This document shows positions 447 through 59,816 of a stretch of DNA of 64,000 nucleotides, piece after piece; the stretch's first letter is position 1; the number at the start of each line of letters is the position of its first letter. A model generated the notes under the pieces. The model was not told the DNA's origin. It searched no databases and saw only the letters and a list, made by a program, of their open reading frames with translations. Origin of the DNA: Amoebophrya sp. A120 (Eukaryota; Protista; Dinoflagellata); NCBI GenBank assembly GCA_905178155.1, contig CAJINV010000013.1:1512392-1576391 (forward strand), in the 5' to 3' direction. The translations under genes and the position numbers were made by a program.

Positions 447-3400
447 TCACCCCAGCTTCATCCTCTCTGGCCCCTCGCCAAACGGCTTGCCCGGGCCTGC
501 GCCTGCTCCGCCTTGGTTCTTCTTCTCTCCCTCCTGCGCCTGGTATTTTCGGATCAGTTCTTGCTTGAACTTCGCGTCGGGGTTGAGTTCCGCCATGTTC
601 TTGCCGTCCGGCGCGCCGTTGTTGTAGCCGTCGTAGTGCTGTCCGAGGCCGCAGAAGATGCCGGGGATGCGGGGCCGCACCATTTCGGAGGCCGCCTCCA
701 CGATGTTGTCCCCGATGCGGTCGCCGAACACGCGCCGCTTCCGCGGTCGGCCCTCCAACTCCGCGTTCTCCCGCACGGCCTGCATGCTGAACCGCGGCAT
801 GTACCACCCCGCGGTGTGCTCTTCCACCTTTTCGTAGATGTAGGAGGCCATAAACTTGTCCTTCAGCTCCGGGTCGTGGGAGAGCAGGGGGTTCTCCCGC
901 ACGCGGCACCAGTCGCAGTCCTCCGGTAGGGTTTGGAAGTGCTCGTAGTCGCCCTTCTTCACCCGTTTCACGTTGTACTTCGCGATGCGCGCCGCTTTTT
1001 CCTCGTCGTCCTCGGACTCGGATTCCTCCCCCGCGCGCTTCCGCTTTTTCGAAAGGGCTTTCGCGGCCATCTCGTATCCTCGGCAAAAACGTCCCCACCC
1101 CATAGTCAAGTTGGGAATCTAGCGACACAAATCTCCAAGTTTTGGGAGCTGTGCATGACAAGTTTCCCTCAGCAGTGTAGTGCTGGTTGGCAAGGGAAGC
1201 CGCATCAGAAAGCCATTTTCTCATGCTGTTGCCAGCATTACATTACAAATTCCAAAACACGATTGGAAATGCTTCTCGTGTTCGTGAGGATGCGCATTAC
1301 AAATTTTCCAGGGATCGCAAATCTGCATGACAACTATGGTGTGGGGACGTTTTTCCTCAGGATATCTCGTCCGCCTTCATCTTCGCCAGCGGGTCCTCCA
1401 CGACCTTCTCCCCGTCGGCGTTTATCCTGTGTAAAAACGTACCCACACCATAGTTGTCATGCTACTCTGCATGCTTAAAATGTTTCTCATGCGGAGCCCC
1501 ATGAGAAGCATTTTCTAATGCGGTTTGGAAATCTGTAATGCGCCAATCAGCATGAGATACTAGATCTGTAATCCTGCTTAGCTAGCTCAAACAGCACTAC
1601 ACTACGCGTCCAAATTTGTCATGCGAAACAGCCAAAGCTTATGGATTTGTCTAGCGGATTTCCCATCTTGACTCTGGTGTGGGGACATTTTTACTCAGGA
1701 TAGCGTTCTCGGCGTCCTCGTGCATGGTGCCCTTGTCCTTGTCGTACAGATGCGACCGGTCCACGTTGACCGCCTCGGCCCACAAGTCCTTCTCCTTTTT
1801 CACCTTCGCGTTCTGTAACACGATGTCGCAGAGGAGGAAGGATTCTTGCGTGTTGTCCTCCAGCAGACAAACCACCCGGCTGCGGATACCCTTCCGCCAG
1901 TCGACAGACAACACCGTGCCCTTCAGCCAGTCCGTCTGGTTCGACCACGCGTACACCTTGGTCCCCGGCGGGAGCAGCATGTCCCGGTCCTCGAAAAACT
2001 TCGACACCTTGTCACTGGTCTGCTGTTTTTGCACCAGTTTTCCGAACCGGGAGTTGTTCCGCATCCCGGTCATTTGTTCCTGTTCCTTCTGCAGCAGCAT
2101 GTTGTTCACGGTGAACGCGTCGAAGTACATCCGCGCCCGTCTGCGCCAGATCTCCAGCTGCGTCGCGAACATCACCTGGAACTTCTTCCGTTCCGGGATC
2201 GGGCACCGGGGCAGCACGGTGGAGTAGTACCGGTCGCCGTTCAACAACTCTTCCACGTACTCCCCCAGCGAGATCTCGTAATCCGGGTAGTGCTGACTCG
2301 GTGTCAACAGCGGAATCTGGATCTCACTGTCCTTGTTTGCCTGTTTCTGTTCCTCGATGCGCTTCCTCGCCAGCTCCGCGGCCTTCTCCTCCTTGGTCGT
2401 CAGGCCCTTCGCGTCGTCGACGATCTTCGCGTTTTCGATCGCGCGCTGGTTGTTGGACTCCTCCGTGTCGACGTACAGGAGTAAATACTCCCGGAGACAC
2501 CGGTACATGTCCTTTCCGGGCAGGGTGTGGCGCAAAACCAAGATGCCGCACACCCGGACGAACACGTTCTCGTGCTCGAGAATCCGCATCAGCTCCTCCT
2601 CGGTGACGCCGTACCGGACCATCGCGAAGGCGATGCAGAACAGAAAACTCGCCTCGGACTCGTGTCGGCCGTGCGGCTCCACGCTGGTCACCTGGTCCAC
2701 CACCTCCGAGACCAGCGCGTCGACTTCGAGGGGCAAGTGCCCGCCCAGTACGAAGTTCCCGCTGTTCCCGATTTGCATGGCGATCCGCCCCGTCGCCTTG
2801 TCCCCGATCTTGGACTTCTCCTGCACGTCCAATTTCCCGAAAAACCGGACGTCCTCGCACCCGCGCAAGACTGCGTAGTACGGGGACCGACAAATCTGGT
2901 CGCGCATCATCACGTTCCACCCGTAGTACGGCTCGCCGGCGAATTTGATGCGGTTCTCGTTGGCTGGGTCCACGTCGTACGCCCCGTGAAACTTCTTCTT
3001 GCTCTGCTCAAGCCGGGCCGCTTGTGCCGCGGCGCCGGAGGCGACGATTTGGGTGGACGCAGCCGGGGCACCTGATGCCGGATCCGGAACCGCGGTGGTC
3101 TGTTTTTTTAGATACTTACAACATACAGATGGTATTACGACTTATTCAACGTCGCTGTTCGCATCACAAAAACGAAAGAGGACATTGCAGTCCTCCGCTG
3201 GTCTCCTGTTTATTTGAGAAGAAGCTGAAGTTCGTTGAGTTGTATGACACTGAAATCGAAAAATAAAGCCGCGTCGACATGATCGTGACAGAAGTCATGT
3301 CAATTGTATAAAAGTACATATAAGAACTTAAGTACCCCCGCAAACCCGGTCGTCTGCTGTGCGGTGGCGTTGTAAAACTCTGGATTCAGCAGCATGTCCT

Positions 3401-12717: not shown

Positions 12718-15700
12718 TTAAATCCTCCTGAGATCCTCGAAGACCCCGTTCAGGCTTTTAAGCAAAATCGGCTCCGCGTTCTCACTGGACAGCATGACCG
12801 CCCGGGTCATGCGCATCTTCTGGATCACGGACTTCTCCTTCTGCCGCAGCGTTGAAGCCGTGGCGTTCGTGGCACTCATTCTCGCCGACGGTTTATTTCT
12901 CTGCGACGCGGAGCCTCTCGCCTTTGTTTGACTGTCGTCGCCACCAGACGTGTCCTTCACGAAGTAGTCGCTGAGAAAAGTTGCGTTCACACTGGGCCAC
13001 TGCACGAAAATGTTCTGGTCGCGAGATTTCAGAAACATCTTCTCTTCTTCGGTAAGAGATTTCATCTTCGCAGCGGTAGAAGGAGCGCCAGGAGCTGCAT
13101 CTTTGGGAGTAGGTGCAGTTGCTTGCGCAGCACCAGCAATGGGACGCTTCGGTTCCTCGGCTCCTGCGTCCCTTGTCAACGGCACAACAGGCGCAGTTTC
13201 TCCCTCGACCTTTCGTCGCTGGTGACCACTAGTACTTCCCGCTTGTTGACCAAGAAGAGCTCCCATACCGCCGCCACCCTTCCTCCCTCTCATTGTCTCC
13301 CCGTTTCGGAAGGGGCTCAACCCGCGGTTTTTCGGGGGCAGACTGGTAGTGCCGTAGCGTCCTCCCCGGTTCGCCATGGCGGACTCCTCGTGCGTGGTCC
13401 ACAGCCACTGGGACTTTCTCCCACTCAGCACCGTACATTCCAAGTCCAAAAACCCCGGAAAGGGGCGCTTCGTCCCGAACCTCTCTGCGAACCGCCAGTC
13501 CGCGGCCGACCACAGCACGTGGACGCGCTCCGGATCGTAAGTGTTTAATACTTGGTTCTCGTCTTCTTGCTGCTGGTTTGGAATTACTGAGGAGGAAATC
13601 CGCGTGCCGTCCATCGAGAAATCGTAATCTTCGACCTGCGATAAGTAAAACCCGGGGGAAAGCTTTTTCGAGCGGTACAGAATGCCACCAGTTTGCTCCT
13701 CGTCCTGGTAGTTGTTCTCGCTGTCTTCAGAGTCGTTGTATCCTGTATTTTTTCCTCTTGACCCTTGGTTCACCCTGGTAACCGGCACAAACTTCTTCGT
13801 CATGGCATTCCTCTGCATTTCGAAGTTTTCCGAGTTCAGCTGGAAGGTCTTGGTGTTGTTTGCGTTGCTGCTATAATCAACGCCGGCGATGTTGATGTTC
13901 TCAGAACCAACGACCTGCTGGGATGATTTTTGGATGGCTTTGCTGGTCGTCGCTGTTGTTCCCTCGAGCAATTCCTGTAGCTGACCTTGCATGGCGAGCT
14001 CGCTATTCACTGCAGCATTCAGCAAGTCCGTCAATGCGTCGTCCAACATGGGAACGCCCGATGTGGTCGCCTGTTTGGAACTCGACTTGGAGCTTACACC
14101 AGATGGCTGGCCCAATTGAACCGCGGTCGGCTCGGGGTAATAGAAACGAAGAAGCTTTTGCTGTTGCCGCTGCTCCACTGGTGATCCAGCAGGACGAGCG
14201 TTGTTGGCCATCTTTTCTGCCGCGGAACGCTGCTCGTCCAAAGATTCTGCTGTTCGCTCCGCAACACCAGGAGTGCGACTTTTCGCAACTTTCGTTCTGC
14301 GCTCCTTGACCGCCCTCTTTACCTTCATTGCAGAGTCCAGCTGCGCCGTTCTACTTGCACTAATAGGGTTTTTCGCGGCCGCAGTAGCGCCTTTCCCCGT
14401 CTTATGTAGTACCTTTGTTCCCTGTTTTCCTGACAGCAACAAGGCAGCCCCGTTTTTCCGACTTGCCTTTGGGTGCGGAACTGGGGGCTGGTCTTCGGTT
14501 CCTGATATGGAAGACCGACTTCTGGAAATTTCGTCATCTCTTAAGCTGGTTCTAATGCGGCGACGTGAGCAGGAGCTCCGCTTTCGACGATTACTACTAC
14601 TTGCCGGTCGATTTTGAACATTTCTTGCAGCTTTTCTAGCACGACCGCTATGTCGCTCATCTGAGGCGTTTTTGCTTGTCGCTCTACCAAAGCCCGCACC
14701 CGCTGGAGCCCTGCGCGATCGCGGCCGAAACTCGCGCTCTCCTTGACAGTCTGCTGTCTGGGAACTCTGGCGTCGCCTACTAGTAGGAATGTTCTTGCCA
14801 CGAACTACTACAGGACCACCTTCTGCTCCATGCAGTCGGTCCTCCTGATAAAACGCGAACTGCAACTTTTCTTCATTTCCGGAAGTTGTATTTGTGTTGC
14901 TGTTCTTGTTGGCACCAGTGCGAAGAATTCTACTTCTCTCCTCGTCCCTACCGCCAATCTGATGATCCGGGACGTCCTGCAAGGAAAACATCTTGCCGTC
15001 CTTCGAGAAGGCCTCATCGTGGACCACCACCGGGTGCTCGAAGTTCACCACCACGTGCTGTCCGGATTTCACTTTCTCGACGTCTAACTTCCATGCGTCT
15101 TCCCGTTTCTCGTTCTCCGGCTCCCAAATCCACCCGCACTCGGCAACCTGGTAGGTGGTGGACCGTTCGGGAGGCGGGGGCGGCGCTGCATGATCTTTAG
15201 TATCCGAAGAAGTAGACAGCGAAACCCGATGCGCAGGGGAGAAGCCGATGAAGCGCACCCGCGCGTGCCTCTCCAGTTGCCGTCCGCGGGAATCGGTGCA
15301 GGGCGACTTTTGCATCGCCTCCTTCAACAGTTCTTCGTCGAAAAACGCGGCGCCGCGGACGGCGGAAACAATCGTTGCAGAAGATGAAGAGCCGGCACTG
15401 TTGTTCGGGAAGAAGCTGTGCTGTTTCAACCTTTTTTCCATTTCCCGCTGAATCTGCAAAAGCTGCGCCTCCGTCCGAATTCGCGGCGCGTGCGCTTGGC
15501 GGTCCAGCGCCGACGTTGTAGTTCCCTTCTTGAAAACGTTCAACTCCCCATCCAGACTGTGGTAGTCCTGCTCCAAAAAACAGCCGAAAAAGTCCAAAAC
15601 CGACTGCGCGGCGTAGCTGCCCTCCTGTCAAATGTAAAAATGTCTGGGTCTGGAAGATTCTGAGACTTGGTTGGTTGGTTGGTTGGATAGCGCCTGTCGC

Positions 15701-16292
15701 CGGTGCAGGTCCCGCCCTCCATCGATTGCGATCCGGAGTAGCCAGAACACAAGGCCCTAGTGGCACCATGTTTTGCCTGGGCCATGATGTCTGTGATGCA
15801 TGCCCTAGCATCACAGATTTTTTGAGGGCTTCGCGATGCCTATTCCGCATGACAAATGCCCTCTCCGCGTAGCAAAAATTACACTCCCTTTGCTGCTCAT
15901 GCAATACAGATTTTTGTGGAATTCAAATTCAGCATCACAAGTTGCATTCTTCCAGACCCACACATTTTTACATTTGATACCTCCTTCCAATGAACCACTT
16001 GTTGCTCGTTTTTGAACTGCGAAACCTCGTAAACCCCGAGCATGTGGTCGAACTCCGTGTGGTAGTTGGAACTGTTCACCGTTGGGCTCGCGTGGAGAGA
16101 TACAGCTACGCGGTTCGCGTGCAGCAGGTGAAGCTGGAACGCGTAGTGCAGATCAGAAGTATCGGTAGGATGATCTTCGGTTTGGTTAAGAGATGCTGAT
16201 CCGTCTAAATTCTTGGACTGCTGCTCATGATCCAATTTCAACAGTCTGCGACTTTGGTCCTCAGGGTAATAGAAGAAACGAGGGCTGCTCAT
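12718..16292 (-). CDS. Hypothetical protein ~1071 aa, 2 exons
   Basis: ORFs 15897-16391 and 12718-15597 join in frame (VVHWKE-GSYAAQSVLDFF) after removing 15626-15979 plus one TSD; 3216 nt. Confidence 0.75.
15626..15979. mobile_element. Introner/MITE, family B (TIR TATCAAATGTAAAAATGTCTGGGTCTGGAA), carrying a ~97-bp insert
   Basis: ~30-bp TIR, TSD CCTCC; frame restored. Confidence 0.95.
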
Positions 16293-20633: not shown

Positions 20634-21523
20634 TCACTTTTTCGCTACTGCCGCTGTTTGATCAGTTTCGCCTTCACGAGGGCTCACATCATCCCTATCA
20701 ACTGTAAAAATGTCTGGGTCTGGAAGAATTCATGTTTGTCATGCTTGTCTGGCATGACTCTTAAATCTGTCATGCACGTGACCCAACAGCTCCGTTTTTC
20801 TGTGATGCAGAAGAACAATTTGTCATGCAGAATAGGCAACACCTAGAAGCTCAGAAACTTGTCATGCTGAGCCAGCACTTGTGGCATGATCATGAGACGC
20901 CGCCCAGCATCACAAGTTTCCAGACCCAGACATATTTGCATTTGATAATCCCCCCGATCGAACCAGTAGACCGGAATTTCGTCGTCTTCATCATCGTTCG
21001 CCAGGTCTTCCAGTTCTTTCTCCTTGCTCCTATCGTCTTTCGAAGCAGAAGCAGTACCACCAGGCTGCACATCCGCTGTATCCTCGTCCGGGTAGAACAC
21101 GACCAGAAACCCGCTTTTCTTTACCAGCCCGTCCGTCGTGTTGTCCGGACCCACCGCTGGGCCTGCTTCAGCGCTGCAAGACGAGGAGGAAGATGACGCC
21201 GTTTGTTTCCTCGTTTTCACTTTGCTTGTCGCCGGCTTCTTATCTCCATCCTTTTGTGCTGACTTTATACTCCCCCTCGACTTCCCGCTGCTTGCCTTCT
21301 GGTCCACAATTTCCCGGCGGATACTTGGGAAAGTCTTCAGCTTTTCGTTCTTTGGCAAGAAGGAGGTTGCGGACTCTTCGAGAATCTTCGCAATTTCCTC
21401 CTCCTCGCCGGGCTCCGTCACGACCAAGGCTTTGCGGGTTGTTGCAATTTTGGACGTCGTCGAAGTATTCGTCGCGTTTGAACGCTTGCTGCTCTGAGGA
21501 CTAGCGCCCGGCGCGCCCGACAT
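20634..21523 (-). CDS. Hypothetical protein ~210 aa, 2 exons
   Basis: ATG 21523; after element removal reads YWFDRGD-DVSPREGETDQTAAVAKK* (TGA at 20634-20636); 633 nt. Confidence 0.6.
20696..20947. mobile_element. Introner/MITE, family B (252 bp)
   Basis: Family B TIRs, TSD ATCCC. Confidence 0.95.
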
Positions 21524-37445: not shown

Positions 37446-40400
37446 TCACCGCGCAACCCAAGTGCGCGCATTGGCCAGCGCCATGTTGAATCGGTCCCAG
37501 CCACTGGACCTGGCCCCGTTGCTCCGGCTAGTGCCTGCATTGGTGGTGGTGGGAGATGACCGCAGAAAGTTGCTCCACCGCCTCGCTGATGTATCTCCGT
37601 CATCGCTCTTCAGTTTTGCGTCCTCCTTGTCATTCCGCAGCTTCTCCGCAAACACCACACTGAAATACTTGTACTGCATATCCTCAGTAAAAACGTACCC
37701 ACGCCAGAGTTGTAATGCAGATTTGCAAAGACAGGAAGACTTGTAATGCGCATCCCCATGCGAGCCATTTCCAATCGTATTTTGGAACTTGTGATGCTGT
37801 TAACAGGATGAGCAGATGAATCTGTGATGCGGCTGCACTTGCTAACCTGCACTACGCTGCATAGTGCAACTTGTCATGCGTGACTCACAAAACTCCTAGG
37901 CTTGTGTTGCAAAATCCCCATCCTGACTCTGGTGTGGGTACGTTTTTACTCAGGATACTGCAGCAGTTCTTTTTGCTGCGGGTCTGTCAGATACGTCTGC
38001 TTGAACACATTGCTGTTCTCGATGGCTCTCCCGAGTACTTGCCCCGTCGCTTGTTTCATGAGGTACCGCATGAGCAGTTCCATCGGTGGCGAGGACGGCG
38101 GAAGAGGATCGGTTTTGGGTAGTTGGTCTTGTTCCGCCCCATACGCATTTTCAATATTTGTTGTTCGTCCAGAGGAGGCACTACTAGTTGTACTAGCGAC
38201 CCCCTCCTTCTGGAACCTTTTCTTGTTATAACTGCCGCTCGACACGGCTAGCGCAGATGTTGAAGTGCCACCCTGTTGCCGTAGATCCGCCTCGACTACC
38301 TCCTCCTCTTTCAGATTGAAAACTTGCAAGAACTCGTTCAGCGGCAAGATGGCTTGCAGCCGCGTCTTCAGCTCCTCGAGGCCGTCGAACCACTGCCACA
38401 GCGCAAACAGAAAGGGGTAGAAATTCGCTTCGTCAAAGTCAAAGCAGTGAAAGTATTCGAGAATGACCTTCTGGAACACATCCCGAAAGACCCGCTGCTC
38501 CAGTTCATTCTTCAAGTTGATGCGGTTTTGCAGCGCGAAACTGTACGTCAACAGATGGCTCTGCTTCTCCTGGCTGTGCTCGCTGGCCCAGGTGGTGATG
38601 GCGGCCTTGCCCACGTCAAAGTACTCGTTCATGATTTTCGTCTGCAGGCGTTCATCGCACACAAAATGGCTTTTTTTCTTATTGCCCTTGCCCTGTTCAT
38701 CAACATCATTCCGCAGCTTAAAGTAAATCCCAACGACGTGCTCCACGTTCTCGGCCCAGATCCGCAGGCGGCTGTCGTCCGCGTCGCTGACGTCTATGGG
38801 TCTGGCACTGGCCAAATCCGGGACCGGATCTTCGAACGCCCCCAGCAGCGCAGCCTGCTTCAAGGCGTGCGTTTTTGCGCACAGCAGGTCGTTGTGCAAA
38901 TCCGCACTCTTGCTGGAAAATTTCCCGAAAAAGCGCGAAAGAATCGACTGCTTCAAGCGTCGCGCCTTCACGACCTCCTGCTGTGTCTTTCTGTCATCAT
39001 CTTGCAGTTTCTCTTTAGTACCTTCCGACGATGCAACAAGGGACGACGCAGATGAACCCGACCTCGAAACAGGTGCTGGTTTCCGCTTGTTGCGCCAGTA
39101 AATTTCAGGATCCGCAAAGGTGACGCTAACAACCCGCTTCTTGGTGGGCTTGGAATTAGTGTCTGAGTGCGCCGCCCACATCTTCTTATTGCTGCCTCTC
39201 GACGCAGGAGTTGCACCAGAGTCCTCGTAGAAGTGAAAAAGCAAATTGGACAAATCCGGGCGGCCGTGGAATGCCCCCGCTTTATCCTTCATCTCGCGGC
39301 CGGGGCAGGCTTCGTGAATCCAGAGCCGGAACGCTTGCGTGAAGGCGTGCACAGCCGACGAGTAAAAGCGGATGCGCAACCGGTGGTACACTCTCTGCGC
39401 ACCGAACCCGGCCGCCGCACTGCGGGTGCTTTCAACAAGGTTGGGATTCGAGGCGAGACTGAACCTTGCCATCATAGCAGTCTGCTGGTTCTGGTGTACG
39501 ACCGCGGCCCGCGGAACAGATGCACCATCTTCCACGGTACCACTACCGGTCTCGTCGAGCGCGGAGGGGTCGGAGATTCGAGCGTAGGTCAGGAACTCGC
39601 TGCCATCGACGGTCTGGTGTTCCCCATGGTCGTCGTCGAGGGATTCAGCATCCTCGTCCGGGGGGCGGACCAGCAGCTGGCTGTAGTGCGACCTGAGCAC
39701 GGAGACAATGGGGTCGTAGTACCGATCATCCAGCTGAATGCGGCCTCCGGCCTCGAGGATCTCCTGCTTCGTCTATTACAATGAAAAATGCAGCCCCCAC
39801 CCCAGAACTTGCAAAAGTTTCTGATGCAAAGTTTCCAAGTGAAAACTCTCTGTCTTGCATGGAAGGACTGCGAGTCTTTCTGATGCAGAATCTAGGTGCG
39901 CAAGGTATCTTTTGCATAAGAGATCCGGCTGCTGCTGGGCTCTTTGCAATACAAATTCATTGAGCTATTCACCATGGAAAATTTGTGACGCTGCTATATG
40001 CAAGACGAAGACGGGAAATGTGTCTATTGGAAAAGTTTGCAATACAAATGCTGCCAAGTAGTTCTGATTCGGGGCATTTTTCGTTTGCATATCGTCCGCG
40101 GCTTCCTCACCTTCCGCATCGCCCCGGTCAACTCCGCCCCGAAATGGTCCAGCTCCGTGGGTGGTTCCACGCCCGCGCCGGAGGCCTCCACCGCGAGCGG
40201 GTTGGAAGAAAACATCTTCAACGCCTTCCCCTGCCGCTCTGCAGCCGCGTCGAGAGTCGCCAGATGTGGGAAGGGCATTTGGAAGTCGTACTCGAGCGAC
40301 TGACCCTTGTGCCAGGGAGTGCGCACCCGCAGCGCAAACCGCATCTGCTGCAGAACCGCCCTTTCGCTCTTCATCCGAAGCCGCAGCAACACCCCTACGG

Positions 40401-43172
40401 CGTCTCGAAAGGATCGGAACCCGTTAGCCAGTACGAACACCGCCTGTCCGTACCGCGTCCGTGCCTCGCTAATTACGTGCTCGCGGCGCTTGGTCGTTTT
40501 CAAATGATTGGCCTCGGCAATCTGCGAGGGCACGCCAAGGATTTCTGGCAGATACAGTCCCTTCTGGAGCAGGTTTTGCCGCTGGTCCTGCTCCTGCTCT
40601 TCCACAGCAAACAACTCATGTAGATAGGCACGCTCTGCCCGCAATTTCTCGCGGAACACCCCGGGGCGAAGCATCTTTAAGACCAGATGTTCCGGCGGTA
40701 GCACGACACTGGACTCCCAGGATCCGTCGCCACCATCGGGCATGCGATCCCCACCAAGTAGATCATGATCATGATCAAAAAAATAGTGCATGTAGCCAGA
40801 TCTTCTTTGACTTTGTACTAAGAACGAGCTGCTGCTCGTCGCTTCTGTCACTTCACCACGTGGCCCGTCCGTGGGCCGGGGCGACGTCCTCGCCGTCTCA
40901 TCTCCACCTGCTGCGCCCTCTTCTGGCTGTTGTTGAATCAGGTGAAAGCTTTCCCCGAAAGCAGAAGCAAGGTCGGAAATGCGCAGCGGCCGTTGATCCT
41001 TGTGGGATTTTTTGCCCGTGATCAGCTCTTGCAAATTCACCACGAAAGTGTTATCGCTTGTCTCCTCCACGACACAATCCTCGAAGAGCGATTGAAAAGT
41101 GACTTCCGTGTGATACAGTCGCCCAAAAATGGCCCCCGCCGACGTGTCTGCATCACTCGCGGTGCCACTTTCACTCAAAGCGCCACTTCTTGTTGCCCCC
41201 TGAGGAATATAGAGACGGTAGTCATAGTCCTCGTACATCAAACAGCCGTCTTCGTCCTTCTTGTCGCTCTGCTTGTACCTGGGTGCTGGGGCTCCTGTTC
41301 GTGATGTTGGCTGTACTTTTTCGTGCAGTTGCCCCAGCCGTGCTGCCAGCGTGCTTTGCACAACATCAAGGGGAGACGGCGTAACTTCTTGCCCACGAAA
41401 CTCCCGGTTTACCACATTCGTGTACTTCCAAAGGCTCCGGCCGTGATTCACCTTGACACCAAACTGGTGAAAAGTAGACAACAACACCGGGCCGGAATCC
41501 TCAAAAATGCGCACCAGCTCGAAGCAGGAGTTTGCTTCTAGGAGCCGCACGCAACCCTGCGGGGGCTGTCCGGGCGACGACTCCGCGCACGCCCCAAGCG
41601 CCACCGAGGTCGCCTCTGGGGCGGTTTTCTCAAAGTAGTACTCCAGGTAGGAAAACAGGATCGGAATCTTCACGGACAGGTGAATTTTCTCGAAATAGTT
41701 TTCTACGAACGTCGGGACGATCGTCTCAGTAAGCGGATCAGCAAGCAAGACGTTCTGGCCTTTCTCTTTTTCGCGAAAAAACTGCTCGCTGTAGATGTTT
41801 TTTTCTAGTTCCTGCTGGAAGAGACCGGGAAATGTTTCCGCGCACGGCACCACGGTGGGCTTGTGATGATTTTTCATTTCCGCCGGAAGAACATACGGCG
41901 CCGCATAACTCGCGACGGAAACCGGTGCGGCTTGCAGCAAATCGCTCAGCGTCAGTTTCTTCAACCGCGCCACACTATGGAACTGTCAGAATCGAAATCG
42001 ACAAAGTTGAAATGATTTGTCATGCATAAAATGGATGCCAGTTGGAGCCCAGTTTTCAAGTGGCGCATGACAAATTTTGGTGGTTCCTAAATCCAGTTTG
42101 TAATGCTGTTTGGGTAAGGAAGACGCCTTTTGTCATGCTACTTCCGCAGCTCTATTTCTCCCCCTCAAGAGGCTGACAATCTGCCTCCGTTGCCTACTCT
42201 GCAAGACAGACACTTTGTGGGTTGCATTTTATGCATCACAAATTTTTTCAACTTTGACGATTTCAATCCTGACGCTTCCATACACACTTTCCGCACCGTA
42301 GAATTCCGCCAGCCTCTTTTCTATCAAATGTAAAAATGTCTGGGTCTGGAAACTTGTGATGCTGGGGGGCGTCTCATGATGAGGCCACAAGTACTGGCTC
42401 AGCATGACAAGTTTCTGAGCTTCTAGGTATTGCCTATTCTGCATGACAAACTGCGTTTCTGCATCACAGAAAAGTGTAGCTCTTGAGCAACGTGCATGAC
42501 AGATTTAAGAGTCATGCCAGACAAGCATGACAAACACGCATTCTTCCAGACCCAGACATTTTTACATTTCATATCTTCTACGTTGGCGCAACTGGTGTCT
42601 GGGCCGCAGATTTTCTCAAGCAAAAGTCGCGGCTTCGCGTCGCCGGCGAGAAACGCGGCGGGAAGGAGCGCGGTTGTACTATCAGCGGCCGTGCTTTCCT
42701 CTCCTTTTCCAACCTGGAGCAGTTGACTGCTGCTGCGCGAGGACGAGGATCCTTGTTCCCAAGAAGAACTCCCTCTCCACCTCGAGTTCGTGCCACCAAC
42801 GGTCGGCGCGTATGTCGTACCATCTCCGTCGACGTCCTCCACATCCTCGTCTGCCCCAAAAGTTATTTGATCCTCGTCGTCTTCGTTTCGGTTGTAGTTC
42901 CCCCCGTCGGGATGGATAAGAACCGCAGAAAAAGTAGGCCCACGGTGAAGACGTCGATGCTCTTCGTCTTCTGCTGCAGAAGTAGATGCTGTTGTACCTG
43001 TAACTGTCTGCTCGGTCATCTCCTGCTGTTCCTCTTCTGCCGGTTTTGAAAACACTGCACTTGTTATTTTACTGCCATCTAGTAAAGCGAGTAGGAGACT
43101 GAGAAAACACGTTCTTGACGCCGCCGCCACCGACGTCCAGCGCGGGGAGGTGGTCCACGCGACGTGCTCCAT
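37446..43172 (-). CDS. Hypothetical, probably secreted protein ~1516 aa, 5 exons separated by 4 introners
   Basis: Hydrophobic N-terminal CFLSLLLALL; four junctions all in frame; 4551 nt. Confidence 0.75.
37679..37957. mobile_element. Introner/MITE, family A (279 bp)
   Basis: TSD CTGCA; frame restored (KELLQYKYFSV). Confidence 0.95.
39774..40091. mobile_element. Diverged introner, family D (318 bp)
   Basis: Ends TATTACAATGAAAAATGC / GCATTTTTCGTTTGCATA, TSD TCGTC; frame restored (KPRTKQEILEAGG). Confidence 0.85.
41976..42282. mobile_element. Introner/MITE, family E (TIR TATGGAAGYGTCAGGATTGAAATCGTCAAAGTTGAAA, 307 bp)
   Basis: 37-bp imperfect TIR, TSD CACAC; frame restored (YGAESVARLKK). Confidence 0.93.
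42322..42573. mobile_element. Introner/MITE, family B (252 bp), inverted relative to the 20696 and 25841 copies
   Basis: TSD TTTTC/TCTTC; frame restored (ANVE[E/K]RLAEF). Confidence 0.93.
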
Positions 43173-44344: not shown

Positions 44345-47300
44345 TCAATGCTTCTTCTCCGCTGCCGCCGCAGGTCGGACGCCGCCACTCGACGAGGACG
44401 CAGAATTTGTTCGCGTCTTGATCTTTTTTCTTCGGGAAGCATGATAGAGGTCGCTCGTAAAGTCGTAGGGAATGGAAATCGCAAAGTTAGAACAACTCGA
44501 AGAGGACACTGTGTTGGTTGTACAACTCATCGACGCCCTCTTGTTCACGTCCTCGACGTCGGTGCTCCTTGTTGACGTTGAAAAGGCAGCGGCATTGGAA
44601 AGCACCTTCCGACGCTTCAACGCTTTTCCTTCAGTGTCCTCGTCCACCGCAACACAAGAACTGCTAGTGAAAGAAGAACCAGCAGCCGTCTGGCCATCTT
44701 CCACTTGACAGTCTGCTTTGTCCTGTACTAGTCCATCATTCAGATGACGACACAGACGGTCTTCACAATCAGCTGGTTCATCTCCGTCCGCAAGGATGAA
44801 GGACTCTGTCGCTGTACTAGTGTCAAACAGTGCAGCCCGGCGTCCCTTGCTTCTCTCCAAGAAGGCTTCCATTTTCGAGACCACCTCGTAGATGCGCTTC
44901 GGGAATTTGTTGCGAAAGTACTCGTCGCGCAGGCAGAGATTCACCGTCTCGATGAAGGCATACTGCAGCCTGCGCAACAGATCGGATTTCCGCAACCGCT
45001 TCCAAATCTCGTCCACGTCCGCGCCCAGCGACGGAAAAAAGGTCAGGTCCGACAAATTTTTTCGCAACAAAGCCGTTCTGATGATCTTGGAATTCTGCAC
45101 GCCTCCTCCAGTTGTTGATGTTGTCTTCGCGGTAGTTGTTGGCGCACTAGCACTGAGTGGTCCTTGATGTTTCATGTGCGCTGCGCCAGCTGCCCGTGCT
45201 TTCCGTTCCAAAAAGTCCTGCTCCTCCTTTTCCAAAACCGACGCGACACTATCCAAGGGAAAAAGTAAAAGTGTTAGTTACTTACTAGTACTACACCAGT
45301 GCAAAATAAACAGTCTGCATAGAATAAGCATTCATGCGACCGATTTGGCATAGAAGATTCTGCAGTGTGTAACTACAACACTTTTTTCTTTGCATAAGTG
45401 ACTACGTTCATGTAGTTCGGAAACTCCTCAGCCCAGAAATAGGCGCCCTCGATCACAAACTTTTCGAACGGGTCGATCTTCGTGCCTGTCCTCTTTGTCA
45501 TGCTGTTAGTGAGGTCGTTGATAATTTCATCTTCGTCGCCTTCACCACCACAGGAGCTGCTGATATTTTTACAACTACCTGCATCTTTATACAAACCACG
45601 TTCCATGTCGGCCACAACATCGTAGTGCCTCGAGGAGGACGTCGTTTTATTGTCGTCCAAAAATTGTGGTCTCTTATCGCGGAGGTAGATGTGGCAGTCC
45701 TCGAGGTAGTCGACCGAATCGATCCACCGGTCCGCGATGTCGGTCAGCCGCTCCACCATGTCGTCCTTCACGTCCTCCAGTTCGTTCTCGGGCATCGCCA
45801 TGTCCTCGTACTTTTCCATGCCGACCGTGTCGAATCCCTTCCACTTGTTGCTCATGGACAGGAAATGCGCCACGTGCGTCTTGTTCAGTGTGATAATGTA
45901 TCAAATATAAAAATGTCTGGGTCTGGAAGATTGCAACTTGTCATGCTAAATCTGCAGCATGCAAAAATCTGTGTTGCATGCTTACCAAAAGTCGCCCAAT
46001 TTTGACCAAGTCGGGAGGTAGTTTCTCATGCAGGATAGGCATTAGAAAGTTCTCGCAGAATCTGTCATGCTAGCTCCGGCATTCCAGACCTCATGAGTCA
46101 TGGAAAAGCAGCATGACAAATCGCGCATTCTTCCAGACCCAGACATTTTTACACTTGATATAATGGATTCGTACGCGCAGATGTTCAGTTGGTGGGTGAT
46201 CGTCGGTGTCGGTGACAAAGAAGTCGGTGGACAACGGCTATGAAGTAGACCTTGGTGGTCCTTCTTGTTTTTGTTCGCCCCTGCAGCTTCGCCCTGCTCT
46301 ATTTGAAGATGTCTTTGTTCATCATCAGGCCAGCACCGTGTTTGCCCTTGTTCCACCACCGGGGCGGGGGGCTCCGTGACCGACAGCGTGACGTGCGGAA
46401 CGCCGCCGGTGAAGTAAAACACATCGCCCGGCTTGATCAGACAGACCGCCGCGGCCTTCTGCAGCAAGGACAGTTCCAGGTCCGGCAGTTTCATCTTGAT
46501 GTTGTTGACTTTTACTTGTTTTTCCGTTTGTTCTGTAGTGTTGGTCCGCTTGTCCTTCAGTTTTTTAGTACCTGCATCCTCTTCTGCTCCTTCGTCCATC
46601 ACCCGTGGATCCTCTTGTTCGCCACAGCTTGATGTTCTTTCAACTTGTTCAACTACGGGGACCCGGGGTAGAAACAGGCAGTCGGACACCTTTGTCAGCA
46701 GCTCACTGGTGGTCTGCACCGGCCACGCGGCCAGCAGCTTGTAGCCGGTCCAGTTTTTGCCGATGTTCTGCCACAGAATCTGGTCGATGTGCAGCGCCTT
46801 GCCACTGCGGTCGCCGCCGAGAAACACACCCTCGTCGTACCGGTCCCAATACAGCGTGTAGTCGCCGTACTCCGCGCACACGTCGCGCATGTCCCGCTTC
46901 AGACTCGTGCGCACCTTCTCCTTCCGCTGCAGCGGGTGGTAGATCTCGTGGTTGTACCGCAACTCGGTCATGTACAACGTGTTCTCAATCTTCCCCGCAG
47001 GTTTTGCGGACGTCGGTGGCGACGTAGTAGACGTACTAGCAGTGCCAGCATCATGATCCGTACTAGTAGTTTTACTACTTTCTCGTTCTCGCTGCAGCAA
47101 ACTTTCCAGTGCGGTAATCTGCGAACTCAGGTCCTTGGCCTTGCAGACCTCCTTCTGGTACAGAAGCTTGCATGAAGATGTTGATGAGGCACAATTAGAA
47201 GTAGAGGTAGCAGGAGCAGTAGTAGTTTTATCTGCCTGCAGTCCATCTGTGCTTCTGCTTTTCGGAAGCTGCAGGCTCTTGCACTGCTCTGGCGGGTCCT

Positions 47301-51719: not shown

Positions 51720-51997
51720 GGCGGGGGGCACGGGGGGAGCGGGGAACACGGGGAAAACGGGAAGCACGGGGAAGACTGGAAACACAGGAAAAGCGCGCGG
51801 GAAGCCCGGGGGAAGCGGATGGAAAGCACGGGGAAGGCGGGAAGCGCGGCGAAAGCGGCCGGGAAGCACGGGGAAGGTGGGGAGCATGGGGAAAGCGGAA
51901 AGCACGGGGAAAGCGGGAAGCACGGGGAAAGCGGGAAGCACGGGGAAAGCGGGAAGCACGGGGAAAGCGGGAAGCACGGGGAAAGCGGGAGGCACGG
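51720..51997. repeat. Purine-rich minisatellite, 18-bp unit GCGGGAAGCACGGGGAAA
   Basis: Visible tandem array, most regular at 51895-51990. Confidence 0.9.
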
Positions 51998-53568: not shown

Positions 53569-53931
53569 TATGTATGGGAGTGTCAGGATTGAAATCGTCA
53601 AAGTTGAAATATTTTGTCTTCATGCTAAACCGACCGAAACCACTACACAAATAATCGTTTGTCATGCATAAAACGCAGCCCACAAAGTGCCTGTCTTGCA
53701 GAGTAGACAAGTGAGGCAGATTGCGAAAAGCCTGCTGAGGAGCAGTAGAAATAGAGCTGCTAAAGTAGCACGACAAAAGGCGTCTTCCTTACCCAAACAG
53801 CATGACAAACTGGATTTCGGCTCTGCCCAAATTTGTCAGGCGCCACTTGGAAACTGGGTTACAACTGGCATCCATTTTATGCCATGCCAAATCATTTCAA
53901 TTTTGTAGATTTCAAACCTGACGCTTCCATA
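53569..53931. mobile_element. Introner/MITE, family E, inverted relative to 41976, with a terminal TATG duplication
   Basis: TIR from 53573, TSD GTCTC/CTCTC; frame restored (CCTFWRE[T/R]LGLSEFSRC). Confidence 0.88.
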
Positions 53932-56900
53932 CTCTCCCTCCAAAACGTACAGCATTCACTGCTCGCTGGCCTGGCGTAGTCGCCATTGTAGTGGCAGCCA
54001 CCTTGGTCGCGAGGCAAGCCGTACCTTTCGTAGCTTAGGTGAGCGCAGGTAAAAAAGACTCCTGGTCCTCCTCCTTCATACGTCTGCATCAAGCCGGAGG
54101 TGCTGCTCACGTCGGCGCTAGACTGGATGGGTATCGCGTCGACAACAGGCAACCGGTCATCTGGTTCGACCTCCGCGACGTCGGTCTCCTCCGTTTCCTC
54201 CACCAGCTCCGCGGTGTCCAGAACGTCCACGTCCAGATCGTCACTGCCCATGCCGCCGGCTAGGCCGTTGAGAGTCATGATCTGCCTCTCCCCCGGCGCA
54301 GACAGTTGCAGCTTGGATGTGAGCCCCTCGGCCTCGGCACGACCTGAAAGGTGCACATACTTTTTTTGCCGCATGCGCATGCCTATGCGTGCTATTAGCA
54401 CAACCGACACTGTTATCTCAATACTCCTGCTGGTGGTCAGCACTCCTTTTCAGTCGAAAATAATCATCGTGCACGACGCAAGAACTAGGCACTGGTGATA
54501 CCCTGTACAGGAAGAGCAGCAGCAGCAACACGATCATCGAAACAAGAAAAACAGACTGTGCCAGATTTACAACCTATACCTGCAGACACCGTTCCCGCCC
54601 CGCTGATCGATAGCAACGAGAAGTGTCCCCCGGATGTCGCGTCGTGGACCGCAGCGCCAGTGTCGCTGGCTGGAGCCGCCGCCTCGGCGTCGCCAAATGT
54701 TGCAGCAGATGCGAGGCTCTTGAAGCCATCCTCGGTACGCCCGGAAATGTCGCCACGGCTAAGTAGTTGCTGCCCAGTAGATCCCGTCGCGTCTGTGGCT
54801 GCAACCTGTGGTGCGGCATCGCCGTCCACGAGAAAACTGCTCTGTGCGCCCCCACGGAGCCGGGGCGGGTTGGCACGGGGGGGGGGATTGGCACGGGGCT
54901 CTTGGACGAGGCCGTCACCACGTCGAGACGGCGCCCTCGCTTGCATTTCCTCGAAGTCGAACAAGACCCCTTGTTGTAAATCTTCCTGCGATCCATCCGG
55001 CGCGACGGGACGTCCCAGAACTAGGTCCTCCTGGTGTGTGCCAGCGAAGCAGCCATCCCTTACTGTACAGTACGTGGCTACTCGGCGTATTGGTCGTCTT
55101 TGCAGGCCTCGCCGTTGTGCGTCGGCCACCGCTGCATTCAGAACGTCTGCGGAGTCCAGCGTGTAATCTGAGCCGCCGTCAACTATCGAGTACTGCCATC
55201 GGAAATCACGGAAGTCTGTAACTGGGATCGGACAGTGGCGCAAAACTTGCCACGTCGACGGCGCCCTCTTGCAGGTTGGTTTCGAGTACACATCTTTCGG
55301 CTCCACCACTACACAACACTGCGCGCTCGCCATCCTCTGCAGGTTGCCTTCGTAGTAACAACCGCCGTCGGGTTTTCCAAATTTCATGTACCAACAGGTA
55401 AACAAAAATTTCGGTTCAGTGGTCTGCATCAAGCCGGAGGACGCGTCGGCGCTAGGCTGGACCACGTTCTTCGTGACGACATCAACAGGCAGCCGCTCAT
55501 CTCGCTCGACTTCGATCTCCGCGCCGTCAAGAAAGTCCGTTCCTTCCATTTCCTCCACCAGCTCCGCGGTGTCCAGAACGTCCACGTCCAGACTCGTCGG
55601 CTCCTGCTTGGCGGTGTTGACTCGTCCCAGCGACCGCGGAGGGAGCTGCCCATGCGCAGCCGCACGTGTAGGCGAGTGCTCGCCCTGTTGTACCGCCCGC
55701 ACCGCCTTTGGTTCTCCCGCTGCGACTTGGTGGTCTTCACCGGCTTCGTTTCGGGTCGTCGGACCAGTTTGTGCGGAAGCGAACACGAAGAGAAAACCTG
55801 AAAATTTTCGTCAGGGTGGAAACCTCGCTTGTATATGTATTCGCGCAGTTGTATTTTGTTTCTGCATCACATGTCCAGCAAAAGTTAAAATATATCCAAA
55901 GCATCATCCTGCATGGACCGACAAACATCAAGATAGGCAACCACCACACGAACTAACTACCTATGGCGCAACACGGATTTTGCACGGCCAATCCGGTCCA
56001 GGTGGAGATCGGTGCAAGAATTGTGACAAATGGCTTCCAGGAAAACAGCATCTTTAGCAAGCCGGTGGGGTACTTGCGAAGCAATGTGGAACCTTCTTCA
56101 CAGAGACGAAGGCGAAATTGCACGTCGTCGAAGGATTCTTTGTCTTTCGAACAAGTCCGGACCTGCTCAAGCCTACTTCAGATTGTAAGTGCGCCCACCG
56201 AGGACGAGAATTTCTCAGCGAAATAAGCTTGACTGGTGATGAGAATGCTCAAAATCCTCCGTGCAGCAGGAGAAGGAGCAGTGTAGGCAGTGGCAGAGTG
56301 ATTTTCGTTCGCAAGATCTATGCACTGTTTCAGATTGATTTGTTCCTATTTTTATCAAATTAGACGAATCTACTTATGATATGAAACGGTGTTCGCCTCA
56401 CGCAGAAAAAAAAATGAATCTCCATCGCTTCCTAAAAGGGTAGTTGGTGGGGTAACCGATTTCCATTCTCAACAATGATTTTCTCAACAATGATTTTTTC
56501 ATTTCAAAGTAGAAGTACGTGTACATACTTGGTTAAATAATGTATTTTGTTCCGCTCTGTGTCTATTTGGGTTCGGCGATGTTGAAGACGACCCGAACGC
56601 GAAATCATACGACAACTAAGCAAGGAAACAACGCGGCCCAAAGCCCAGTTTGGTTTCCGCAGCTTCTACAAGAATAGAAAAGCGAAATAAACGATATCTT
56701 CATGACGTTTGCTCCCTTACGACCGCACGAGGTGAAAGAGACGGAACTACCGAGGCAGACGACATCGACGAGACAAAAGACGGTGCGCATCATCGACCAC
56801 ATAACATTCTATCCGGCACAGGGGGTACTACTTGACGACGTACTGACTCGATGATGCCACGCGGGACTCTTTTTCTGATGTTTTCTTTTACGCGTCTAAT

Positions 56901-57639
56901 TACACCAGCAAATGCAAAAGCCTTCTAAAATAACACTACAGCAAAATTTTTGAGTCAGGTTCAGCAAGCGACGCACCTTCAGGAAAGGACGGAAAAATAT
57001 TCAGGATGTGAACCTTCTTGTACGTAGTTCTGCGAATTTTCAAGCACAACTCCATCGTGATTTCTTGTACTTCGCACTGATTTCATCCCTTTTTCACGAG
57101 AACCTTCAGTCATAACGAGAAAGAACGCACTCATAGCTGTCTTGAGGACCAGCACCACACGTATCTCACAGCCGAGTCAGTGCCTGCTCTGGCTTCAGCT
57201 TCACAAATAAGAACCCGAATCTTCACATAAAAACTAGTAAGTAGAACAAGGCACGAATCACAAAACCGTATATATATTTTCTGCTGAGAATCTTCATCCC
57301 CTGTCGTGCGTGCACTGCGCCAGCACCAGCCCTTGCTTTTCCTCCCCCATGATGCCGCGTGCCCGGGTTTTCAAGTAGCACATTTTCGCGCCACTCGCGA
57401 ACACGAAGGTATCGCACTCCTTATCGGCCTGGCAGGCGGCCTGGTACTATGCTGTGCATAAGTTAGTGCTATCGCGCTTGTAGACGTAGACGTAGTCGTA
57501 CGAATTGCAATCATGCATGACAAATCGAAATCTGCTTCCTGTACCTGTTCCGTACCTGAATCTGCATGACACAGCGCTCTGATTTTCCTGCTTTAGCAGA
57601 ATATTTGTAGCGGCACTTTATTACATCACTAATGCGATA

Positions 57640-59816
57640 CTCATAGGTGCACTTGTGCATTGCATAGACAACTCAGAATGTCGATTTTCGACGTTGCACC
57701 ACCAGAACCGGTGATGTCGTAGCCCTTCACATCCATGTTGTTCGTCTGCTTCCAGTATGCATTGAAAATATGTTGCCAGGGTCTGGAGAAAGATTGATGC
57801 GAGATTCATTTGTAATACTCGGCTGCAGAAGTGCTCGACAGGTTGGTCTCTTATGCAAAAAAGCTCCTTGTCATGCGCAATATCCAAGTAACAAACACAT
57901 CCATGAGCACCTGCAGAACTCTTGTTCACACTCATCTGCGTATTACTGACATCTGCTTTTTAACATTGACAAAATAACACCACAACAAGTTTCTAGACCC
58001 AGCCTGACGTTTTTGCAGTTGATACGAACTCTTTGCAATTTGGCACCTTCCAGCTCGTCTGCTTTAGATGTTGACTGAACTGCTTATCCCAGGAAAAAAC
58101 TGTTGAGTCTCAAGCCTGTGCAGACTTAGCAAAACAAAATCGCAGCCCTCCACGAAGCACAAAGAAAATCTGTCATGCGTCAGGCCCAAGACAATGAGAA
58201 AAAGGCGCTTTTCTTGCCTGTCGATTAAAACAAAAAACTGCATCGAGGAGTTTCTGTGTTACAGGTGGAAACTGGGACAGTTTTTTTCTCGCGATACTGC
58301 TGCACGCCGTTATACAAGATCGGATACCGCATATCGCGAGAAAAAACTGTTTCACGGTGAAGTTGGAAATGCAGAAAATATTTCGCGCAGTATTGTTTGC
58401 CTCGCTACGCATGCAAGATAATGCATCTTCAGCAGTGATTCATGGCAAATGTTCTGTCGTATAGAACAAACTGAAACTCGGAAAGATCAGAAGATGCAAA
58501 ACATGCAAATTCCTTTCCAGTGAAACACACTTTTCGTACGATACTGCAGGTACAGTGGCGCGTCGCTGTTCGTGCGGATCTGCTTCGAGTGCCATGAGAG
58601 CCCGAACTGGAAGGACGTGCTGGCGGCCTCGGAGAAAATCAGCTGGTGACTGGACGTATCCATTGCAAATAGATACATCTGGGCGGTCTGGGACAATCTC
58701 ATGCTCAGCTAAGTGCAAGACTTGCAAGTCTGTCATGTGCGTTGTGCAAGCCCTACACTTCTCTTTCATGCAGAAACGCACTTTTTTATGCAAAACAACT
58801 ATACCCGTAGCAGCTCAAAAATTTGTCATGCTTGGCCCTGAGCTAAAGTCAAACTGTCGTCCTGGCGATTTTTTATCCAGCATCACAACTTTCCCGAGAA
58901 CCCAGACCTTTTTGCAGTGGATAGGACGACCCCGCGTCCTGGAGGGACAGGGCGTGGAATATCAAAAGGAAAAATGCCCCCTCCCCATATCGAAGTGGAA
59001 ATCTGTGACGCAGGATTTGTGTACGCACATCGGATTTGCCTTGGAGTGGAGGACGGCAGGCCCATAGCATGCCAATGCGGAGAGGTTGTGGCCTAGGCAC
59101 TTAGCATGCGGAACGTCTATGCTGTAGGACCAACGGCATTACAAACCGCCTGCATAATGGGGCGGCGCCTATGCCGTTGCTTTCTTGCAAGACAAACACG
59201 ATTTGGGGTCACGAATCAGCATCACAAATTCTGTGAGGCGTTTCTTTTCGTTATGGGGAGGGGGGATTTTTCCGTTTGATATGGAACCCGAAGTAACGGC
59301 TCAGCCGGGACGTGAACGCGTTCCACACGGTGTCGTACGCCATCCCGCTCGGCCCCTCGGCGTTCTATGCATTGCAAATTTGTCTGGGTCTGGAAGAATG
59401 CAAACTTGTGATGCGCATTTTAGAGAATAGAAAAATCTCTCATGCATAGGTAGTAAAAGCTGCCCACGTTATGTCACCAAAGTGGGGGATTTGTCATGCG
59501 GATTAAGCAATGCGGAAGCTTCTGGAAATCTGTGATGCTAGGGCTTCCATGACAGGCATTTTGTGCCATGCAAAAACAGCATGACAAAAATCTGCATTCT
59601 TCCAGACCCAGACATATTTGCAGTTCATACGTTCAGGTTGCTCGCAAAAAGGAAGCTCCCGCACTTCTCGACCAGGAAGTCTAGGCCGCTGAGCCACCGG
59701 AGTACCTCCGGCGCGCGTCCGTAGACAAACGCCGCACTGCCACCGGTAATGGCGTATCCAAAGTAAAATAAAAACAGGTACCCGCCCCGCCTATACTTGT
59801 TGCCATGCGATTGCAC
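57640..59816 (-). CDS. Hypothetical protein segment of micro-exons separated by 6 introners (5' and 3' limits uncertain)
   Basis: After removing each element+5 nt, one GC3-rich frame is open: ...FASNLNAEGPSGMAYDTVWNAFTSRLSRYFGFHALSLQDAGSSSHQLIFSEAASTSFQFGLSWHSKQIRTNSDAPLYLQYPILYNGVQQFSQHLKQTSWKVPNCKEF... Confidence 0.72.
57756..58024. mobile_element. Degenerate family B introner (269 bp)
   Basis: Ends TATGCATTGAAAATATGTTGCCAGGGTCTGGA / TCTAGACCCAGCCTGACGTTTTTGCAGTTGATA. TSD lost; element+5 nt removal keeps the frame. Confidence 0.65.
58085..58296. mobile_element. Family C-like introner (212 bp)
   Basis: TATCCCAGGAAAAAACTG / CAGTTTTTTTCTCGCGATA, TSD CTGCT. Confidence 0.88.
58332..58543. mobile_element. 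Family C-like introner (212 bp)
   Basis: TATCGCGAGAAAAAACTGTTTCAC / GTGAAACACACTTTTCGTACGATA, TSD CCGCA/CTGCA. Confidence 0.85.
58657..58923. mobile_element. Diverged family B introner (267 bp)
   Basis: TATCCATTGCAAA / TTTGCAGTGGATA, TSD GGACG. Confidence 0.88.
58960..59281. mobile_element. Introner/MITE, family D (TIR TATCAAAMGGAAAAATSCCCCCTCCCCATA, 322 bp)
   Basis: ~35-bp TIR, TSD TGGAA. Confidence 0.93.
59366..59629. mobile_element. Introner/MITE, family B (264 bp)
   Basis: B-type TIRs, TSD CGTTC. Confidence 0.93.

Follow-up and report, generated by a model that had tools for sequence, protein, structure and literature searches.

Introners of Amoebophrya and related introns

Introners of the dinoflagellate Amoebophrya sp. 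A120, described by Farhat et al. 2021 (PMC7789003), are introns of ~240 nt with inverted repeats that read TAT, ~7 bases and AAA; they carry direct repeats of 3-5 nt (5-bp in the Fig. S19 legend), lie in co-oriented genes and mostly lack GT-AG ends. Here, we describe 28 elements of this kind in a window of 64,000 nt from the same organism (contig CAJINV010000013.1 of assembly GCA_905178155.1, positions 1,512,392 to 1,576,391). They are TAT...ATA inverted-repeat sequences of 147-359 bp, collected by looser scans and from RNA junctions in eight minus-strand genes, and each is named below by its first position in the window. The elements fit the published introners and therefore belong to a class that is already known, as the initial annotation of this DNA had recognized. 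What is new is the fixed register in which they very probably leave the message, one base before TAT and four bases after ATA (the 1/4 register), together with a mis-spliced copy at 53573.

This register is where the locus departs from earlier descriptions. The parts of PMC7789003 covered here report no clear end signature and splice sites that vary relative to the hairpin, whereas every placeable cut in the window has one offset; the rule may be partly foreshadowed in that paper, which mentions repeats of four nucleotides located upstream from the 5' end. The A120 families of Gozashti et al. 2025 (PMC12130899) are likewise DNA families with terminal inverted repeats (TIRs), ~148-320 bp long, but they are listed with mixed splice sites and automated target site duplication (TSD) lengths of 2-6, and no fixed offset appears in the 38 of 58 A120 rows covered; the families were compared by description only. 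Within the Amoebophrya intron literature searched, a coverage that did not extend to the figures of PMC7789003 or to Roy et al. 2023 (Curr Biol), we found no statement of a fixed offset.

Other lineages offer partial parallels. The non-conventional introns of Euglena (Nomura et al. 2025, PMC12501133) also combine a complementary motif pair at fixed exon distances with the absence of GT-AG, and their machinery is unknown. Their signature is N3-CDG...CHG-N5-6 followed by a purine, whereas ours is N1-UAU...AUA-N4 with spacers that sum to the transposon duplication; the elements do not carry the Euglena pattern (N3-CDG...CHG-N5-6/R), and position counts over the window and related elements show a first exon base that is not restricted to purines. 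Introns of Fritillaria borealis (PMC13326754, PMC11282704) are similarly transposon-derived, with TIR and TSD, and are handled by an altered U2-type spliceosome, but they prefer AG-AC and AG-AT ends and the species keeps U1, whereas end bases are free here and U1 is reported undetected in Amoebophrya. Introners of Micromonas and Aureococcus (PMC11282704, PMC7789003) resemble miniature inverted-repeat transposable elements (MITEs), and through their duplication the message is restored upon splicing. One canonical site is their own and the duplication supplies the other, whereas the elements of the window need neither.

Removal from RNA in a fixed register

We aligned datasets X1, X5, X9 and X10 to positions 27500-46500 and X1-X4 to 52200-64000, together covering 23 of the 28 elements; 1075, 1423, 15626, 20696 and 25841 lie outside both stretches. 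RNA-type contigs skip the element length plus 5 nt (L+5) at 17 of the 23 (6 of the 12 in 27500-46500 and all 11 in 52200-64000), a length that holds by construction at 57448, 60293, 60907 and 53573, where the ends were set after the junction had been read. The six elements without a skip lie in the ABC transporter gene, where none is spanned among the RNA contigs listed and depth is ~1 or less. X1-X4 behave as spliced RNA, leaving intergenic bins empty and lacking two canonical GT-AG introns. X5 behaves as DNA, with a flat depth of 25-34 in unique bins and contigs that enter the elements from their flanks, one of which spans 45250 unbroken at flank depth. The raw RNA runs X9 and X10 do not cover the locus (153 and 3 reads placed, nearly all partial at element ends). 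One joint, 59397/59598 inside element 59366 (seen only in X2, with 25 letters on its shorter side), departs from the register and probably represents another, internally deleted copy. Taken together, we regard removal of the elements from RNA as almost certain. The initial annotation had foreseen transcript gaps of element length plus 5 nt, removal that is mostly not GT-AG, and excision in RNA instead of DNA; the skips at 17 of 23 covered elements, GT-AG ends at only 2 of 28, and the retention of elements in X5 contigs, including the intact copy at 45250, bear it out.

In transcript sense, the cut register reads exon/N-UAU...AUA-NNNN/exon, with slashes marking the cuts, and ACA may stand for ATA. 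Since a perfect 5-bp duplication hides the position of the cut, it is the copies with a decayed duplication that reveal it. Four junctions share no letters across the joint (45245/45398, 57751/58026, 59750/60101 and 60288/60610), and all four give the 1/4 offset. Five more narrow the cut to sets that include it (4 or 5 nt past ATA at 42322 and 57448, at least 4 at 58332, 3-5 at 53573 and 1-4 at 60907), and the remaining eight are uninformative on register and compatible with it. We therefore consider a fixed 1/4 register very likely. Placed in this register, the 28 introns begin with A in 6, C in 6, G in 13 and T in 3, followed by T-A-T in all, and their end bases show no preference. As a set they are not U2-type GT/GC-AG introns, with GT-AG ends in 2 of 28 here and in 3 of 101 elements of related contigs. 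Plus-strand GT..AG labels at 57448 and 60907 were rejected, the gene lying on the minus strand.

The terminal triplets appear to be held in place. In seven decayed elements, 22 of 35 repeat positions are mismatched versus 1 of 42 terminal-triplet bases changed, which points to selection on the triplets after insertion. Orientation of the element does not matter for removal: 41976 and 53573, 85% alike and opposite in orientation, are both removed, and so are 42322 and, in the other orientation, 45899 and 59366 (orientations read through 30009). The 1/4 asymmetry tracks the host gene and not the orientation of the element. Because the two spacers (1 + 4) add up to the length of the 5-bp duplication, removal of a newly inserted element would give back the original message wherever and in whichever orientation it had landed, and the variability of the published splice sites then appears to stem from the duplication.

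Reading frames agree with this arithmetic. Once element plus 5 nt is removed, all 28 sites lie within a minus-strand open reading frame (ORF), including a Walker A motif of an ABC domain (GHNGAGKT, split by 30009) and an H-loop region (split by 25841). Element plus 5 nt beats the five or six other lengths tested at 22 of the 28 sites (two narrowly), and is not the best length at 1075, 1423, 20696, 53573, 57448 and 58332. The claim in the initial annotation that every element lies in coding sequence stands for the window; its claim of a restored frame fails in RNA at 53573, where 364 nt and not the frame-restoring 368 are removed.

This last element provides a natural experiment, four bases of the element end being duplicated next to it. 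The ancestral frame, taken from the upstream paralogous exon, needs 368 nt removed. Contigs of X1, X2 and X3 remove 364, and a loose end in X4 agrees, although assembly may have discarded a less abundant 368 form. The inner ATA, which the predicted fold pairs in register (end stem z -3.6), is followed by four bases and then the cut, and the message is frameshifted to a stop at ~53552. The position of the cut is therefore set neither by the direct repeat nor by the outermost ATA or the reading frame.

A larger sample, of DNA sequence only, came from metagenome contigs scanned with the group B TIR, and it leans to that group by construction (at least 143 stretches, 140 analyzed). The families in these contigs are those of the window, with best identities of 79-95%, and no long flanking sequence is common to the two. 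They hold 411 distinct elements, versus 9 in shuffles, under a scan that demanded a repeat of at least 3/5; a 5-bp duplication is present in 338, with 227 distinct sequences and no strong sequence preference. An unforced scan of 475 candidates gave a 5 bp repeat in 228 and one of 7-8 bp in 3. Removal of L+5 leaves at least 100 open codons on both sides in 103 of 315 related elements, versus 27-29 for L+3, 4, 6 and 7 (~3.6x); a coding location for every element is thus shown for the window only. Reading frame oriented 101 of the 411, and the other 310 were dropped. Among the 101, TAT is kept in 100 and ATA in 97, the four ATA variants all being A-to-G changes that keep a U-G pair. No preference for G at +1 was found in them (A23 C26 G31 T21), and an AG acceptor in 13 of 101 is a weak lean that is not established. 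Candidate branch adenosines in this set lie at -7 and -22. A viral contig collection scanned in the same work gave 0 matches.

How the ends may be recognized

We lean towards a modified spliceosome that would measure from the UAU and AUA triplets instead of reading GU-AG. The donor N-U-A-U would be read like the host's G-U-A donors, by U6-type recognition for which a G at +1 is not needed, and the acceptor would lie at a measured distance from AUA, a ruler to which the end-to-end stem and a U-run at -15 to -19 would probably contribute. It is somewhat more likely than not that the hairpin is needed for removal. Canonical donors in the window (GTATAG, GTAGTT) share U at +2 and A at +3 with the N-U-A-U donor, and T stands at +2 in all nine predominant non-canonical motifs of A120 and all nine of A25 (Table S4, PMC7789003). 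The Amoebophrya spliceosome is reported as nearly complete, with U1 and snRNP27 not detected (PMC7789003), and in other species donors with U at +4 occur together with the loss of SNRNP27K (PMC10581693). Most elements fold with a predicted in-register end stem, and pairing at positions 11-15 persists in 26 of 35 cases in decayed elements.

Several points weigh against this reading. X1-X4 are assembled contigs of one sample whose RNA label is an automated guess, four element ends were set from their own junctions, as given above, and the enzymatic step is inferred rather than read from RNA chemistry (lariat, branch point, circle). Free bases at +1, -2 and -1 are difficult to reconcile with the way in which intron ends normally dock in the spliceosome, a UAU paired in the stem would need unwinding, and TAT could be fixed by the transposase alone. 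Cuts are exact even at 57756 and 60293, for which no end pairing in register is predicted. An excess of G-U over A-C pairs in transcript sense, a sign of selection on an RNA hairpin, was not found (G-U:A-C 7:21 in the window, 49:39 in related contigs). The cut at 53573 is explained equally well by a stem ruler and by scanning that stops at the first AUA, and all host genes lie on one strand. A separate candidate, the A-C excess in the window (21:7, p 0.013), was not replicated in 101 other elements (39:49).

A non-spliceosomal route would keep the same elements and the same 1/4 offset and give the cut to an endonuclease-ligase, or to Euglena-type machinery acting at a set distance from the paired end motif. 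Such a route has no need for a +1 G or a terminal AG, and it suits removal in both orientations and the strong predicted end stems of most elements (z -3.6 for 53573); Euglena introns likewise use a paired motif and fixed spacers, with machinery unknown (PMC12501133). We hold it to be possible but rather unlikely, given that U at +2 and A at +3 are common to the canonical donors of the window and to published A25 ends from a different TIR, that the spliceosome is reported nearly complete (PMC7789003), and that 57756 and 60293 are cut exactly without a predicted end stem. The same two elements, along with the missing G-U excess, speak for recognition by sequence alone, in which the spliceosome would read a UAU donor, search onwards from a branch point or U-run and take the first AUA, and the hairpin would simply reflect the symmetry of the transposon; at 53573 such a search would reach the inner ATA before the outer one. 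This is improbable in light of the four ATA variants in related contigs, all of which keep the U-G pair, and of the pairing kept at positions 11-15 in decayed elements, and by eye no branch motif common to all groups is evident.

Two further explanations would do without RNA removal of this kind. Programmed excision from DNA in some life stage could be suspected because TA...TA ends with inverted repeats resemble the internal eliminated sequences of ciliates, and the DNA evidence comes from one DNA-type run only, X5. It is very improbable, however, as X5 contigs enter the elements from their flanks and, among the joints listed, one spans 45250 unbroken at flank depth; contigs without the elements are without canonical introns too and leave intergenic bins empty, and the 1/4 asymmetry follows the host gene. 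We give still less credence to template switching by reverse transcriptase, which could join direct repeats across the intervening hairpin and so make false junctions. Hairpins flanked by short direct repeats are a classic substrate for it, and the libraries are presumably cDNA, but the four junctions without shared letters keep one offset, the 4-letter repeat at 53573 would favor 368 where 364 is seen, and no sense frame of any of the 28 elements is free of stops while host frames, including a 3274-codon ABC gene, are intact.

Returning to measurement from the paired ends, we put forward a second splicing code in Amoebophrya only tentatively, as somewhat short of an even chance. A paired-end ruler would replace both GU and AG, and the 1+4 spacers would match the duplication and make any insertion silent in either orientation; the enzyme would be either a spliceosome free of end-base requirements or an undescribed RNA cut-and-join machine.

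The elements and their mobility

A strict scan (TAT..ATA with at least 15 of 20 terminal bases complementary) returned 24 pairs, of which 15 have an exact 5-bp direct repeat; the 20 shuffles yielded 0-2 pairs apiece. Its total equals the 24 elements of the initial annotation, which the full set of 28 exceeds; three elements (59755, 60293 and 60907) lie beyond the span of 1075-59629 given there. The annotated size range of 147-363 bp is right at its lower end, the 363-bp element being really one of 359 bp (53573-53931) plus a 4-bp end duplication. Direct repeats are perfect over 5 bp in 18 of 28, 4/5 in three (34672, 42322, 58332) and 0-3/5 in seven, so that the 22 previously counted with 5-bp repeats are reached by adding 4/5 matches and the outer reading of 53569. 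The transcript 5' end is TAT in all 28, and the annotated TAT start and ATA end hold for most elements, with TGT/ACA at one end of 15626 and 60293. The division into five families depends on threshold, TIR clustering giving four multi-copy groups plus 2-6 singletons at the two loosest thresholds.

The elements fill 12% of the window, and copies within it are up to 91% alike. All 28 have stops in all three sense frames, and each is shorter than 360 bp. X5 depth over element bins is mostly 10^3-10^5 versus 25-34 in flanks, depth not being copy number. An A-run lies 6-8 nt in from TAT, at one end or more, in 23 of 28, in keeping with the pattern of TAT, ~7 nt and AAA. Runs of A and U at +12 to +16 and -15 to -19 are common to the otherwise unrelated TIR groups A, B and C, in which the U-run occupies the place expected of a polypyrimidine tract; group D is without them and has CTGAC at about -15 in both arms instead. 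We also observed that an TGTCATGC-type motif recurs inside elements in both orientations (124 matches in 7.8 kb of elements versus 41 in the other 56 kb), possibly a putative binding site for transposase or an RNA-binding protein.

With TIRs, a constant TSD length, short size and no coding capacity, the elements have the features of MITEs and are likely non-autonomous DNA transposons with a 5-bp target duplication. The initial annotation had proposed such an origin, and the duplication of unselected sequence in related contigs (338 of 411 elements, 227 distinct) supports it. They were probably moved in trans by an integrase-type, Ginger-like transposase. This proposal rests on analogy with A120 family 38, which is listed under Ginger and has a 5-bp TSD and TA/TA termini (PMC12130899), both shared by the window elements. 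Neither a transposase nor an autonomous element with the same TIR was found among the 140 loci recovered with the group B TIR. Two longer group B elements with 5-bp repeats, at L051 5001-5972 (972 bp) and L034 3862-4492 (631 bp), have unrelated interiors without long frames; neither contains an open frame of more than 90 codons, such as an integrase-like ORF, and they are possibly deletion derivatives of an autonomous element. A 4208-bp candidate in L057 proved to be a chance pairing of two short elements, each with its own repeats.

Host genes and neighboring features

Every long gene detected in the window is encoded on the minus strand (Table 1). The first (450-2910) encodes a PRP38 domain and carries elements 1075 and 1423, so that a splicing factor gene is itself dependent on removal of these elements; three PRP38B paralogues are listed for A120 (Table S6, PMC7789003). 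Genes of the dCMP-deaminase family and for a ceramidase, at 6659-7678 and 22103-23371, are uninterrupted.

A gene at ~49800-56400 consists of repeated Cys-rich exons joined by paralogous GT-AG introns. It is frameshifted at 53573 in RNA, yet the contigs there are the deepest in the stretch, and contig depth is a poor measure. Tandem arrays with periods of 7-51 and multiples occupy 50070-52000 and, because of a paralogous exon match, appear to lie in a ~3 kb intron with its donor at 52964 and its acceptor near 49942. Two GC-rich stretches, 11000-12100 and 52200-52700, are unlike their surroundings, and RNA contigs are absent from the first bin of the latter.

Table 1. Elements, introns and host genes of the window (repeat, matching positions of the 5-bp direct repeat; L, element length; intron ends in transcript sense).
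Feature	Positions	Strand	Details
TIR element, group A, PRP38-family gene	1075..1364	-	repeat 5/5; predicted intron AT-AG
TIR element, group A, orientation opposite to 1075	1423..1702	-	repeat 5/5; predicted CT-CG
TIR element, group B, ACA end in transcript sense	15626..15979	-	repeat 5/5; predicted GT-AG
TIR element, group B, 19 codons upstream of stop	20696..20947	-	predicted TT-GA
TIR element, group B, H-loop region of second ABC domain	25841..26092	-	predicted CT-CA
TIR element, group B, ABCA-type gene	28556..28910	-	predicted GT-CG
TIR element, group A, ABCA-type gene	29696..29974	-	predicted CT-GC
TIR element, group B, inside Walker A motif	30009..30262	-	predicted AT-CA
TIR element, group C	31068..31277	-	predicted GT-AT
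TIR element, group A	31369..31648	-	predicted GT-CG
TIR element, group B	34672..34985	-	repeat 4/5; predicted GT-AG
TIR element, group A	37679..37957	-	RNA skips 284 = L+5; register ambiguous
TIR element	39774..40091	-	RNA skips 323 = L+5; register ambiguous
TIR element, group D	41976..42282	-	RNA skips 312, from piece lengths around a 34-nt middle exon, not aligned letters
TIR element, group B	42322..42573	-	repeat 4/5; RNA skips 257 (piece lengths); 4 or 5 nt past ATA
TIR element, group C	45250..45396	-	repeat 0/5; junction 45245/45398, unambiguous 1/4 register (TT-GT); intact in DNA contig
TIR element, group B	45899..46160	-	RNA skips 267 = L+5; register ambiguous
TIR element, group D	53573..53931	-	RNA skips 364; +4 frameshift versus paralogous-exon frame
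4-bp copy of element end (outer second ATA, transcript sense)	53569..53572	-	serves as 4-nt acceptor spacer
Decayed element, found from RNA	57448..57666	-	repeat 2/5; skips 224; 4 or 5 nt past ATA (CT-AC)
Decayed element	57756..58024	-	repeat 1/5; junction 57751/58026, unambiguous 1/4 register (GT-GG); no predicted end stem
TIR element, group C-like	58085..58296	-	RNA skips 217; register ambiguous
TIR element, group C	58332..58543	-	repeat 4/5; RNA skips 217; at least 4 nt past ATA
TIR element, group B	58657..58923	-	RNA skips 272; register ambiguous
TIR element	58960..59281	-	RNA skips 327; register ambiguous
TIR element, group B	59366..59629	-	RNA skips 269; register ambiguous
Decayed element, group A	59755..60099	-	repeat 3/5; junction 59750/60101, unambiguous 1/4 register (GT-CC)
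Decayed element, ACA end, found from RNA	60293..60608	-	repeat 1/5; junction 60288/60610, unambiguous 1/4 register (CT-AT); no predicted end stem
Decayed element, found from RNA	60907..61249	-	repeat 3/5; skips 348; 1-4 nt past ATA (TT-TT)
Canonical GT-AG intron, donor GTATAG	54344..54579	-	skipped in same contigs; control for spliced RNA
Canonical GT-AG intron, donor GTAGTT	55798..55960	-	RNA contigs
Host gene, ABCA-type transporter	24308..36108	-	3274 stop-free codons once seven elements removed
Host gene, part scanned without Pfam match	57297..63634	-	1173 codons once ten elements removed; ten of ten junctions seen in RNA

Implications

The removal of tens of thousands of signal-free introns in Amoebophrya has been a puzzle since 2021. 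A single offset rule turns what were called highly variable splice sites into one motif and explains how a transposon fills coding sequence at little cost. The rule predicts every junction from DNA alone and gives the exact mutations with which to test it, and it would correct gene models in which aligners place junctions arbitrarily inside the duplication. It may also link Amoebophrya to the spacer code of Euglena, likely through convergence. If true, a fixed rule would make this unexplained, signal-free splicing directly testable.

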